64,000 nucleotides of DNA, taken from assembly GCF_044324785.1 (NCBI RefSeq), contig NZ_CP172127.1; one strand, given 5' to 3'. Below, in pieces: positions 55,530-58,168 of this stretch (its first letter is position 1; each line of letters starts with the position of its first letter). The notes beneath the pieces are model-generated. The model made no database searches, was not told the DNA's origin, and saw only the letters and a list, made by a program, of their open reading frames with translations. Both the position numbers and the translations under genes were made by a program. This DNA comes from Escherichia coli. Lineage in GTDB: Bacteria; Pseudomonadota; Gammaproteobacteria; Enterobacterales; Enterobacteriaceae.

Positions 55530-55605
55530 AGATAATTTCCTTAATGATTAGATAGAGTTGGCTTCGCAAAGAAACGCAAAACCATAGAGATTTGTTTCTG
55601 GTAAT

Positions 55606-55637
55606 GCCCTTTTTCAGGGCGGGGATGTGTAAGAGCG
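55606..55637 (-). promoter_or_regulatory. nutR (boxA + boxB)
   Basis: Minus-strand boxA CGCTCTTAC and boxB GCCCTGAAAAAGGGC, between cro and cII. Confidence 0.8.
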
Positions 55638-55645
55638 TTAATAAC

Positions 55646-55876
55646 TTAAGCGGCCATTAATTCAGGCCAGATGCTTTCCCAATCAACCGGATGAAGGTCT
55701 TTGCGAGTCACTTCACCATTGCTGAACTTCTCAATCAGAACACAAAGTGCTGCGCCCAATTCATGATTACGGCTAAGTGCTTTCCTCAAATAGCCGATAG
55801 AAGTTCCGCACTTGGTGGCAAATTCTCTCTGCTCTTCCAGTGAAAGGGAGTTCAGATACAAGCGGAGTTCTTCCAT
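55646..55876 (-). CDS. Cro-like repressor (HTH)
   Basis: 76 aa, divergent from cI across the operator region; HTH segment REFATKCGTSIGYLRKALS. Confidence 0.7.
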   Translation of the reverse strand: MEELRLYLNSLSLEEQREFATKCGTSIGYLRKALSRNHELGAALCVLIEKFSNGEVTRKDLHPVDWESIWPELMAA

Positions 55877-55910
55877 TTGCTATCTCCTTCCCGTTGTTGA
55901 ATAAGATGAG

Positions 55911-55965
55911 TTTACCTGTAGGTAAAAAGCAAATCAATACCCATAGGTTATTTACCGGCAGGTAA
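55911..55965. promoter_or_regulatory. Right operator region (OR) with PR/PRM
   Basis: Palindromic sites TTTACCTGTAGGTAAA (55911-55926) and TTTACCGGCAGGTAA (55951-55965), consensus TTACC-N4-GGTAA. Confidence 0.7.
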
Positions 55966-55984
55966 TCAAAGATAGAATTAAATC

Positions 55985-56671
55985 ATGGATAAATACGAAC
56001 AAAGACGACTAAGGCTGATAGAGATAAGAGACCGATTCTGTAATGGAAAGGCCTCAGAGTTGGCTCGTCGAATAGAAAGGGAACCATCATACGTTTCCAG
56101 AATGCTGTATCCGGAAGGAAAAAGCGGAAAAAAACGCATTGCTGACGATATGATGGAACTAATTGAAAAATCTTTTAATCTCCCACGCGGATGGATGGAC
56201 ATGCTTGCAGATGGTAAAGCTGGAGCTACAGACCATCTTGAGTTTGCGGGTAACGTTCGTGCGGGTTTTGTTCCGGTAATTGGTGAAGCCGTTTTGGGAG
56301 TTGATGGCTCAGTGGATATGATTGAATTCAGATCCGGTTGGTTAAGCATCTACAGCGGCGATAAAGATGCTTACGGTCTGAAGGTTAAGGGTGACAGCAT
56401 GTGGCCAAGGATTCAGTCAGGAGAATATGTTGTTATTGAACCAAATACGCCAGTACATCCAGGTGATGAAGTCTTTGTAAGGACCAAAGACGGTCACAAC
56501 ATGATAAAGATCATGAACAAAACAAGAGACGGTGATTATCAGTTTAGTAGCATAAACAGTGATCACCGCCCAATCACTCTTCCTGTTGAAGAAGTTGATA
56601 AAATGCATTTTGTTTCAGCTATTGTGAAACACACCAGGTACGTAGACCAGGACGATCTGCCAAAAGTTTGA
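55985..56671 (+). CDS. CI-type prophage repressor (HTH + LexA-like S24 peptidase domain)
   Basis: N-terminal HTH and C-terminal autocleavage domain with GDSMWP (Ser nucleophile); 228 aa. Confidence 0.85.
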   Translation: MDKYEQRRLRLIEIRDRFCNGKASELARRIEREPSYVSRMLYPEGKSGKKRIADDMMELIEKSFNLPRGWMDMLADGKAGATDHLEFAGNVRAGFVPVIGEAVLGVDGSVDMIEFRSGWLSIYSGDKDAYGLKVKGDSMWPRIQSGEYVVIEPNTPVHPGDEVFVRTKDGHNMIKIMNKTRDGDYQFSSINSDHRPITLPVEEVDKMHFVSAIVKHTRYVDQDDLPKV

Positions 56672-56685
56672 GGATAAAGCAGCAA

Positions 56686-56982
56686 GTGTTTATACCCGGC
56701 ATAGTAGTCGCTGTTGTAATCATCTGCTTCATATGGGCAAAGTTATCTCCTGTAAGCTCTAAGCATACAGCTGAACTCATGAAGAAGAAGCATCTTATAC
56801 ATGAGGCAGAATCGATAATTAAAAAGTTCAAAGGCATGTCATACGACGACATGTCATCAGAGCAGATTGCTATGTATAAATGCGCCATTGAGCGTCTTGA
56901 CTACTTAAACGGACTCAAACCCAAACACACCCCAGTAGAATCAAAATTGCCGCAATGGCCAAGCAATCCAAATAGCTTCTGA
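56686..56982 (+). CDS. Small single-pass membrane protein downstream of cI (rex-locus position), about 98 aa
   Basis: GTG at 56686 with GAGG upstream (or TTG 56668); TM helix VFIPGIVVAVVIICFIWA then a soluble domain; followed by an intrinsic terminator. Confidence 0.5.
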   Translation: MFIPGIVVAVVIICFIWAKLSPVSSKHTAELMKKKHLIHEAESIIKKFKGMSYDDMSSEQIAMYKCAIERLDYLNGLKPKHTPVESKLPQWPSNPNSF

Positions 56983-56993
56983 CATCTCCTTTC

Positions 56994-57016
56994 AGCCCGC
57001 AAAGCGGGCTTTTTTA
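56994..57016 (+). terminator. Intrinsic terminator ending the cI operon
   Basis: AGCCCGC-AAA-GCGGGCT hairpin followed by TTTTTT. Confidence 0.8.
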
Positions 57017-57035
57017 TATCAATCCAAAAAATTAA

Positions 57036-57116
57036 TTACCTGAAAATTCAAGCAGGTAAACTCTTACATCAATTTTATTTACCTGCAGGTATAGACAACT
57101 GTTTTACCTGTAGGTA
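57036..57116. promoter_or_regulatory. Left operator region (OL) with PL
   Basis: Sites TTACCTG-N10-CAGGTAA (57036-57059), TTACCTGCAGGTA (57079-57091) and TTACCTGTAGGTA (57104-57116), the same consensus as OR. Confidence 0.7.
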
Positions 57117-57160
57117 TATTTTAGGCCATCAGCAGGACGCACTGACCACCATGAAGGTGA

Positions 57161-57191
57161 TGCTCTTAAAAATTAAGCCCTGAAGAAGGGC
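57161..57191 (+). promoter_or_regulatory. nutL (boxA + boxB)
   Basis: TGCTCTTAAAAATTAAGCCCTGAAGAAGGGC; boxB hairpin GCCCTGAAGAAGGGC as in lambda nutL. Confidence 0.85.
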
Positions 57192-57348
57192 AGCATTCAA
57201 AGCAGAAGGCTTTGGTGTGTGTGATACGAAACGAAGCATTGGCCGGAAGTGCGAATCCGGATTAGCTGCCAATGTGCCATTGCGTGGTGTTTTCGTTCAG
57301 GACTACGACTCCCACACACAACCAAAGCTAACTGACAGGAGAATCCAG

Positions 57349-57672
57349 ATGGATGCACAAACACGCCGCCGCGAACGTCGCGCAGAGAAACAGGCTCAAT
57401 GGAAAGCAGCAAACCCCCTGTTGGTTGGGGTAAGTGCAAAACCAGTTAACCGCCCTATTCTCTCGCTGAATCGCAAACCGAAATCACGAGTAGAAAGCGC
57501 ACTGAATCCGATAGACCTTACGGTGCTGGCTGAATACCACGAACAGATTGAAAGCAACCTGCAACGTATTGAGCGCAAGAATCAGCGCACATGGTACAGC
57601 AAGCCTGGCGAACGCGGCATAACATGCAGAGGACGCCAGAAAATTAAAGGTAAATCTATATCACTTATTTAG
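57349..57672 (+). CDS. N: Antitermination protein N (lambda-type)
   Basis: From ATG 57349: [90 protein letters not shown]..., near-identical to lambda N as I recall it. Confidence 0.9.
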
Positions 57673-58168
57673 AAAATGCAGATTTAGGGAACAGATAGGA
57701 GGCGTTACACCTATGGCATCTCATCCTATGGTTAGAAGGTGGTGCAAATCCTTCGTATTGAAGTATGGATTTCACAGAAGATTCATAGCATTGAGCGCAA
57801 AGATAGTGCATTGGCTGACCGGTATTTGCCGATTTTTTGAGACGATAAACCACCGTAGCAACAGTAGGTGTATACATCTCATAGTTTTTCTTTTCCTCTT
57901 CCCACTTAGAGGCTCGATTTATCTTTTCTTCAAGCTCAATAATCTTGTCCTTAGAAATCATCAAAAGCTCATTAAGTGACATTTGCTGCTGTTGGGCATC
58001 CATGAGCTTATCGACAAGTTCGTATGTTTTTTCTTTTACTGAGTAGTCTATTTGCATTTTCTGGATTTCCTTTACTGCGCCAACAGCACTCATCAGAGCA
58101 CCTCCGGCACCAGAAACTGCATCTGTAATCCTACTTATTATTCCTTTTTCATCAGACATATAAATCAC
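57665..58168 (-). CDS. Hypothetical coiled-coil/Zn-ribbon protein (about 164 aa), antisense to the PL operon
   Basis: AT-rich; central coiled coil and C-terminal CAQC...CHRC; convergent with N. Confidence 0.5.

Follow-up and report, generated by a model that had tools for sequence, protein, structure and literature searches.

Which immunity does a prophage express when its antitermination machinery is that of phage lambda and its repressor is not? The question is raised by a prophage of Escherichia coli that lies within a 64,000-nucleotide (nt) stretch of contig NZ_CP172127.1 (assembly GCF_044324785.1), hereafter the window. As read from the letters and the list of open reading frames (ORFs) over 54800-58600, the early region has a standard lambdoid organization, with its orientation reversed relative to the usual lambda map. 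A first-pass annotation, made from the sequence alone, had described a heterologous cassette of cI, cro and their operators placed by recombination inside a lambda-type antitermination frame. Comparison with sequenced phages indicates that the region is the known immunity type of phage mEp043 and not a new chimera. We consider it highly probable that positions 55204-57672 constitute the complete early-regulatory module of a P22/Sf6-like prophage residing at thrW, endowed with mEp043 specificity and with the mechanism and origin proposed below.

The prophage carries the mEp043 immunity type

Megablast comparison of positions 55530-57350 with phage records returned mEp043 (JQ182734, NC_019706 and PV340537) at 99.2% identity, and no other phage record covered the part containing cI, cro and the operators. 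DNA identity at this level spans 55204-57221 and resumes inside N, at 57315-57605. The common block includes cII, which is also annotated in mEp043, and the encoded cI and Cro are each 100% identical to their mEp043 counterparts, over 228 and 76 amino acids (aa), respectively. Thus, the repressor, Cro, and the operator and promoter DNA of both the right (OR) and left (OL) control regions assign the window to the immunity type of mEp043, a Mexican lambdoid phage chosen to stand for an immunity group of its own (PMC3442831; PMC9836094). In GenBank, mEp043 c-1 is already annotated with a 933W-like repressor, a putative PL promoter and a lambda-like N, and no repressor in the phage collection other than that of mEp043 is more than 60% identical to cI over most of its length. 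The block from cII to N is recurrent: 51 of 5,426 complete E. coli genomes contain at least 80% of it, at ~99% identity.

Three other immunity types were considered and rejected. In the case of lambda, cI is only 19% identical, Cro displays no significant similarity (expect value [E] = 2.3), and 55638-57126 has no DNA homology to lambda, bearing out the earlier statement that the repressor proteins and the operators of this locus differ from those of lambda. The 434 type is excluded on both repressor and operator sequence. For 933W, the N-terminal domain of the repressor is 17% identical and the annotated operators of phi24B, such as CGTACTTTCAGTACG, are unrelated to the motif found here, with only the C-terminal domain being shared (61%).

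N and the nut sites are of the lambda type

In agreement with the first-pass annotation, N and both boxB hairpins are essentially those of lambda. N differs from its lambda counterpart at only three of 107 residues (K65E, S94R and P105S; 104 identical, 97%), and residues 1-64, which include the arginine-rich RNA-binding motif, are unchanged. The boxB sequences of nutL and nutR match lambda letter for letter, each folding as a 5-base pair (bp) stem with a 5-nt loop (for nutR, the folding energy is -9.4 kcal/mol, z = -2.7), and both nut sites are placed as in lambda, with boxB and its upstream boxA following PL in one case and cro in the other. The boxA of nutR is identical to that of lambda, and the boxA of nutL matches at 8 of 9 bases, reading TGCTCTTAA here versus CGCTCTTAA in lambda and GGCTCTTAA in 434; only its first base (57161) varies, being T in the window and mEp043, but C in lambda and G in 434. 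By analogy with lambda, N, nutL and nutR are predicted to act together as they do in that phage.

The description of the nut sites as identical to those of lambda is accurate for boxB but too broad for the rest: apart from the first base of the nutL boxA, there are two changes in nutR, and the surroundings of nutR are not those of lambda. The 35-bp core of nutR, from boxA to boxB, matches lambda with two mismatches, both in the boxA-boxB spacer, and its flanks are divergent. We give roughly even odds to the possibility that this core is not a product of recombination at all, but an old sequence maintained by selection, as a single N has to read both nutL and nutR. Such a history is suggested by the island-like shape of the similarity, which falls away on both sides and is interrupted only in the spacer, and by the nutL boxA, where the first base varies among lambda, 434 and this phage and the others are fixed; nevertheless, a very short patch of gene conversion would look the same, and sequence alone cannot tell the two apart. 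In either case, this explanation concerns the history of nutR only and is compatible with the assignment of the module to the mEp043 type.

The immunity block travels together with its nut sites

The prophage that hosts the module is, in gene content, P22/Sf6/HK446-like and not lambda-like. The best matches of 39000-63900 are the P22-like coliphages vB_EcoP-611R6, HK446, Sf6 and CUS-3, and the integrase gene abuts tRNA-Thr(CGT) at 62446-62521, the thrW gene of E. coli (Table 1). The flanking chromosome is E. coli-like (the ecp/pao region, 97-98% identity). When 52001-61000 was compared with lambda by blastn, high identity was confined to 57127-57672 (95.6%; lambda 35037-35583). This homology begins seven bases past the -10 hexamer of PL, at the expected start of the pL transcript, and the leader resembles that of phage 434 even more closely (97.9%). 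On the opposite side, the nutR-cII segment is 66% identical to lambda at the DNA level, with the nutR core as the sole near-identical island. The left end of the block shared with mEp043 (55206-55238) is 94% identical to the cII/O junction of lambda.

Positions 55206-57672, including the lambda-type leader of N, are 99.3% identical to a lambda-like prophage located beside ybhC in E. coli NZ_AP023286, in which the same cassette is surrounded by the lambda genes O, P, ren, sieB, cIII, kil, gam, bet and exo; here, in contrast, the surroundings consist of a P22-type O, a DnaB-like helicase, an Erf-type recombinase and a different gene at the sieB position. As judged from these comparisons, the traveling unit is cII-nutR-cro-cI-orf104-OL-nutL, extending from 55204/55206 to 57221, or to 57672 in the case of the E. 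coli prophage. Because the shared block contains nutR, cII and nutL, the nut sites belong to the traveling cassette and not to the recipient. The late region of the NZ_AP023286 prophage (locus L003, ~8081-12733) also carries an ISApl1-flanked mcr-1.1 colistin-resistance transposon.

These boundaries bear on the alternative that a foreign cassette of cI, cro and operators was dropped between nutL and nutR of a lambda-type early region, so that the nut sites and N would be those of the recipient. On the N side, such an insertion would account for the abrupt rise to 95.6% identity with lambda precisely where pL transcription should begin, and the boxB sequences and the arginine-rich motif of N are indeed those of lambda. 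However, on the cro side lambda likeness is limited to the 35 bp around nutR, with cII at only ~66% DNA identity; the genes for replication, recombination and virion structure are of the P22/Sf6 type; and the 99% block common to mEp043 and the ybhC prophage includes nutR, cII and nutL. Among the close relatives examined, the same cI, cro and operators were never seen between non-lambda nut sites. Overall, we regard this alternative as improbable. Of the original description, the observation of a non-lambda cI/cro/operator segment bounded by nut sites of the lambda type, with a lambda-type N alongside, is retained, but there is no lambda frame: the prophage genes are P22/Sf6-like, lambda DNA is limited to 57127-57672 and the nutR core, and the nut sites move along with the cassette.

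Recombination at short conserved junctions is well established for lambdoid phages. The mosaic probably arose by ordinary homologous recombination at two such junctions, the start of the pL transcript and the cII/O linker, with the cII-nutR-cro-cI-OL-nutL block moving as a unit between lambda-like, mEp043-like and P22-like phages.

Predicted operators and promoters flanking cI

Allowing one mismatch at most, the motif TTACC-N4-GGTAA occurs five times in the window versus 0.94 expected, a count reached in none of 100 shuffled sequences, and four of the five matches fall in the two intergenic regions that flank cI. The sites are arranged in close register with the promoters (Table 1). OR2 and OL2 run into the -35 hexamers of PR and PL (GGTAT/TGATT and GGTAT/AGACA, respectively), the centers of OR1 and OR2 and those of OL1 and OL2 are 25 bp apart (24 bp in lambda), and OR2 and OR3 are separated by 15 bp. 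Between the window and mEp043, 55530-57215 contains 10 substitutions, none of which affects a half-site and two of which lie in the central N4 of OL2. Because the motif is enriched, is conserved together with the N-terminal domain of cI and Cro, and retains unchanged half-sites, it is very likely that these sites are operators. That they are instead chance palindromes, promoter-associated sequence or sites of some other protein is very unlikely, for although the half-site GGTAT overlaps promoter hexamers and its conservation could partly reflect the promoters, the sites number five against 0.94 expected, with four in two control regions, the motif tracks the cI N-terminal domain and Cro as far as Paraburkholderia despite differences in the promoter hexamers, the half-sites are invariant where the central N4 varies, and the motif is absent from the 933W-type loci examined.

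The earlier claim of three sites in each control region applies to OR, which has two perfect sites and a degenerate one, but not to OL, where two canonical sites are accompanied by an expanded palindrome, TTACC-N14-GGTAA, with the half-sites ten bases too far apart. This palindrome is located 20 bp upstream of OL2. When x was varied between 0 and 19, no other exact TTACC-Nx-GGTAA appeared in the window apart from those with x = 4. It has perfect 7-bp arms, and its half-sites are one helical turn further apart than normal; the CAGGTAAACT found around the -10 of PR recurs in the right arm. mEp043 carries the element unchanged, and the OL regions of Escherichia phage CharmingMan and Paraburkholderia phage IPK lack it upstream of OL2. 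Reading it as a promoter fails, as its -10-like TAAACT is the same as that of PR but has no acceptable -35. At the position 15 bp upstream of OL2, where a site mirroring the OR3-OR2 spacing would lie, only a TTACA half-site is present. The element could serve OL-OR looping, for example.

A mosaic repressor with a conserved specificity module

The C-terminal part of cI belongs to the LexA-like S24 peptidase family (PF00717; E = 1.4e-17) and contains the Ser/Lys dyad of that family: S138, in the sequence GDSM, is retained in alignments with the lambda/933W-type and CharmingMan repressors, and K175 in the alignment with CharmingMan. Given this domain and the two conserved residues, self-cleavage of CI triggered by the SOS response is expected. 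The two halves of the protein have different relatives. The C-terminal domain shares 61-62% identity with the repressors of phi24B/933W-type phages and of AU5Stx1, versus 17-25% for the N-terminal domain; the CharmingMan cI displays the reverse pattern (77% over the N-terminal and 32% over the C-terminal domain). These comparisons indicate that the repressor itself is a mosaic, its DNA-binding and C-terminal domains having been swapped independently.

The N-terminal domain matched no helix-turn-helix family of Pfam at E up to 10, yielding only a meaningless MarR fragment, and no sequence in the Protein Data Bank (PDB) matched cI with an E of 0.01 or less. Residues 1-90, used as a database query, recovered 67 relatives, from E. 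coli, Salmonella, Yersinia, Serratia and Arsenophonus, which are mostly ~137 aa long and lack the S24 domain; we take the C-termini of these short repressors to resemble that of DicA, and one of them is named cell division repressor in its source. The AlphaFold model built on the alignment of these 67 relatives has a mean predicted local distance difference test score of 80 (84-92 over residues 1-70) and consists of four helices, with a predicted helix-turn-helix formed by residues 23-29 and 34-40. Among PDB structures, the model is closest to Rep, the repressor of a temperate phage of Salmonella (5D50; query-normalized template modeling score 0.75, 25% identity, E = 4.4e-4), followed by helix-turn-helix domains of the XRE and controller-protein types. 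The modeled resemblance to Rep and to the XRE and controller-protein domains is at the level of the fold only. Cro, for its part, matches PHROG 35 (transcriptional repressor) and, weakly and under the curated cut-off, the Pfam family YdaS_toxin (E = 8e-6).

Homologs of Cro (47-74% identical) and homologs of the cI N-terminal domain occur together in CharmingMan, in Mannheimia phage 587AP2, and in prophages of E. coli and Yersinia; for Paraburkholderia phage IPK, the comparison covered Cro and the C-terminal part of cI, both of which match. The cro-cI intergenic regions of CharmingMan, Mannheimia 587AP2, IPK, E. coli and Yersinia contain the same motif in the same geometry, and those of CharmingMan, IPK, E. 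coli and Yersinia include a degenerate OR2 at the 25/15-bp position. The OR sites are TTACCTGTTGGTAA, TTACCTGTGGGTAT and TTACCTGTGGGTAA in CharmingMan (15 and 25 bp apart), TTACCAAAAGGTAA, TCACCAAAAGGTGT and TTACCGTACGGTAA in IPK (15 and 24 bp), and TTACCCATAGGTAC, ATACCTACAGGGCA and TTACCTGCCGGTAA in Yersinia (25 and 15 bp). In CharmingMan, Mannheimia 587AP2 and IPK, the right half-site of OR2 likewise runs into a TTGAT-type -35 hexamer and OR1 covers the -10, and in the Yersinia relatives the same TAGAAT precedes the ATG of cI. The OL regions of CharmingMan and IPK have two sites 26 bp apart in the same order of OL2, -35, OL1 and -10; no third OL site was found in either.

In one E. coli locus (L011) and two Yersinia loci (L013 and L014), at ~2880-3010, the ~137-aa repressors that share the cI N-terminal domain and lack S24 lie opposite Cro homologs with the three-site OR geometry, and L011 is located beside genes of the YdaT and DicB families. 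As such repressors carry the cI N-terminal domain without S24, the DNA-binding module is common to cleavable and noncleavable repressors. From these sequence relationships, the cI N-terminal domain, Cro and the operator layout appear to form a conserved specificity module that has been joined to different C-terminal domains: a 933W-like S24 domain here, apparently other S24 types in CharmingMan and Mannheimia 587AP2, and, by the same comparisons, short repressors in prophages of E. coli, Salmonella, Yersinia and Serratia. A broader reading, namely, that this is a widespread immunity-specificity module defined by three OR sites at 25/15 bp and two OL sites and swapped between S24 and ~137-aa repressors, with the TTACC-N14-GGTAA element as an unusual third site, is possible but, in our estimate, doubtful.

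A proposed regulatory circuit

The circuit outlined here assigns functions from the layout to the sequence features described above. In the lysogen, CI dimers would bind the 14-bp operators; occupancy of OR1 and OR2 would shut PR and, with it, cro, cII and the replication genes, and occupancy of OL1 and OL2 would shut PL and N. OR2 is centered at about -41.5 from the inferred starts of both PR and PRM, the position from which lambda CI activates PRM, so that CI bound to this weak site could activate PRM, with shut-off at higher CI levels mediated by OR3, inside PRM. The order of strength is opposite to that in lambda, OR3 being perfect and OR2 the weakest site. We speculate that this combination suggests strong auto-repression of PRM, as reported for Shiga toxin (Stx) phages (PMC5977221). 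Because the ATG of cI follows the PRM -10 by 7 nt without a Shine-Dalgarno sequence, the cI mRNA is probably leaderless, by analogy with the PRM transcript of lambda, and would probably yield cI together with the small membrane protein encoded by orf104, ending, as predicted, at the intrinsic terminator (56994-57018). Following DNA damage, RecA-stimulated self-cleavage of CI would relieve repression, and Cro presumably binds the same operators. N could then bind the boxB of nutL and nutR and render RNA polymerase resistant to terminators, as in lambda.

Several points weigh against parts of this scheme. The candidate PR has only 8 of 12 consensus matches, which is under the threshold of the promoter scan and left it unlisted there; OR2 has two mismatches and rests on positional conservation; and with their centers only 15 bp apart, OR2 and OR3 may not both be filled at once. 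CI sites cannot be separated from Cro sites by comparison, because the two proteins always co-occur. The cleavage bond of CI has two candidates, Ala93-Gly94, which aligns with VQAG of the CharmingMan cI, and Leu104-Gly105, which aligns with Ala111-Gly112 of lambda and the ILG of 933W-type proteins. Moreover, the scheme does not account for the TTACC-N14-GGTAA element, and a full-text literature search for the OR1 sequence found no paper.

Features of the locus and neighboring genes

The coordinates of the features are collected in Table 1. JQ182734 lists the counterpart of the PRE-like site as a putative lambda cII binding site. The product of orf104 has a predicted hydrophobic N-terminal membrane helix, and the gene is located directly after cI, in the position of rexAB in lambda and before a strong terminator. 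It is present in mEp043 and matches PHROG 10450, of unknown function (E = 1.4e-54), and has no match in Pfam, NCBIfam or PADLOC. We consider orf104 a candidate exclusion or conversion gene expressed in the lysogen.

Table 1. Positions of genes, regulatory sites and other features in the window
Feature	Position	Strand	Description
Tailspike	23736-26105
DnaB-like helicase	52871-54247
Phage_rep_O (Pfam)	54244-55065
cII	55248-55529	-	93 aa; Pfam Phage_CII, E = 7.6e-30; ~66% DNA identity to lambda cII
Candidate PRE activator site	55504-55517	+	TTGC-N6-TTGC in 5' end of cII, towards cI; putative function
nutR	55606-55637	-	boxA CGCTCTTAC, 55629-55637; boxB GCCCTGAAAAAGGGC, 55606-55620
cro	55646-55876	-	76 aa; YdaS-like helix-turn-helix protein
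cro-cI control region			108 bp
Candidate PR	55909-55937	-	-35 TTGATT (55937-55932), 17-bp spacer, -10 TAAACT (55914-55909); by eye
OR1	55912-55925		TTACCTGTAGGTAA; perfect arms; over PR spacer and -10
Candidate OR2	55937-55950		ATACCCATAGGTTA; 2 mismatches
Candidate PRM	55951-55978	+	TTTACC, 16-bp spacer, TAGAAT; promoter scan 9/12
OR3	55952-55965		TTACCGGCAGGTAA; perfect arms; between PRM -35 and -10
cI repressor	55985-56671	+	228 aa; helix-turn-helix N-terminal domain and 933W-like S24 domain
orf104	56668-56982	+	104 aa, or 98 aa from GTG 56686; ORF list
Intrinsic terminator	56994-57018	+	stem 56994-57010, then T run; 7-bp stem with 6 GC pairs; terminator scan
Expanded palindrome	57036-57059		TTACCTG-N10-CAGGTAA (= TTACC-N14-GGTAA); upstream of OL2
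OL2	57079-57092		TTACCTGCAGGTAT; 1 mismatch; abuts PL -35
PL	57092-57120	+	TAGACA, 17-bp spacer, TATATT; promoter scan 10/12; putative PL in mEp043
OL1	57104-57117		TTACCTGTAGGTAT; 1 mismatch; over PL -10
Lambda/434-type pL leader	57127-57348	+	carries nutL
nutL	57161-57191	+	boxA TGCTCTTAA, 57161-57169; boxB GCCCTGAAGAAGGGC, 57177-57191
N	57349-57672	+	107 aa; Pfam N36, E = 1.5e-26
Erf-type annealing protein (recombinase)	59167-59874
Integrase	61271-62431		abuts tRNA-Thr(CGT), 62446-62521

A 167-aa ORF on the minus strand (57665-58168) converges on N, overlapping its stop codon, in the place occupied by sieB in lambda-like relatives. It combines a coiled-coil-like part with a C-terminal CxxC...CxxC and matches PHROG 1244, of unknown function; no match was found in Pfam, NCBIfam or PADLOC. 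In the early-left operon, an 82-aa ORF on the plus strand (58410-58658) matches PHROG 14587, annotated as anti-restriction protein (E = 5e-48). The late region of the prophage encodes tRNA-Thr(TGT) and tRNA-Asn(GTT) on the minus strand (47393-47548). Outside the prophage, between pao and ecp, lies a type I restriction-modification system on the plus strand (~15600-21500; hsdR/M/S-like according to the matching E. coli annotation), and this flank is variable, the first 24 kb of the window being covered to at least 80% by only 20 genomes. No Rfam family was identified in 53000-60000 at a threshold of E = 0.1.

Significance and comparison with known systems

The practical outcome is the assignment of the prophage to the mEp043 immunity group: its lysogens are predicted to be immune to mEp043-type phages, and the prophage to be SOS-inducible. 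A further result is a map of operators and promoters for this immunity type, which is represented by sequence records; our searches found no published analysis of its operators. This map, the conservation of the layout across the family and the TTACC-N14-GGTAA element may be new. Otherwise, the locus exemplifies two known principles, lambdoid recombination at short junctions and the independent swap of repressor domains, and the finding is an ordinary one, the mEp043 immunity type accompanied by N and nutL of the lambda/434 type in a P22-like prophage and found in dozens of sequenced E. coli genomes; as textbook lambdoid mosaicism, it matters little beyond correct annotation.

The closest known system, mEp043, has the same cII, nutR, cro, OR, cI, orf104, OL and nutL, followed by a lambda-like N. 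It differs in the leader between nutL and N, which is longer and unrelated to the lambda/434-type leader found here (57222-57314 in the window), in the C-terminal end of N, which makes the protein 93% identical to lambda N versus 97% here, and in the surrounding genome, which is P22/Sf6-like in the window. With 933W and phi24B, the shared part is the S24 C-terminal domain of the repressor, at 61-62% identity. Like the module described here, 933W has three OR sites and no OL3 (PMC5977221).

The overall arrangement has several precedents. Heterologous cI, cro and operators are likewise found beside a lambda-type N and nutL in lambda imm434 and lambda imm21, and in Sf6, HK446 and HK633, and P22-like coliphages with a lambda-like N and nutL are already represented in GenBank. 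Phage 434 shares the homology boundary at the start of the pL transcript, but in both lambda and 434 the repressor and the operator sequence differ from those of the module described here.

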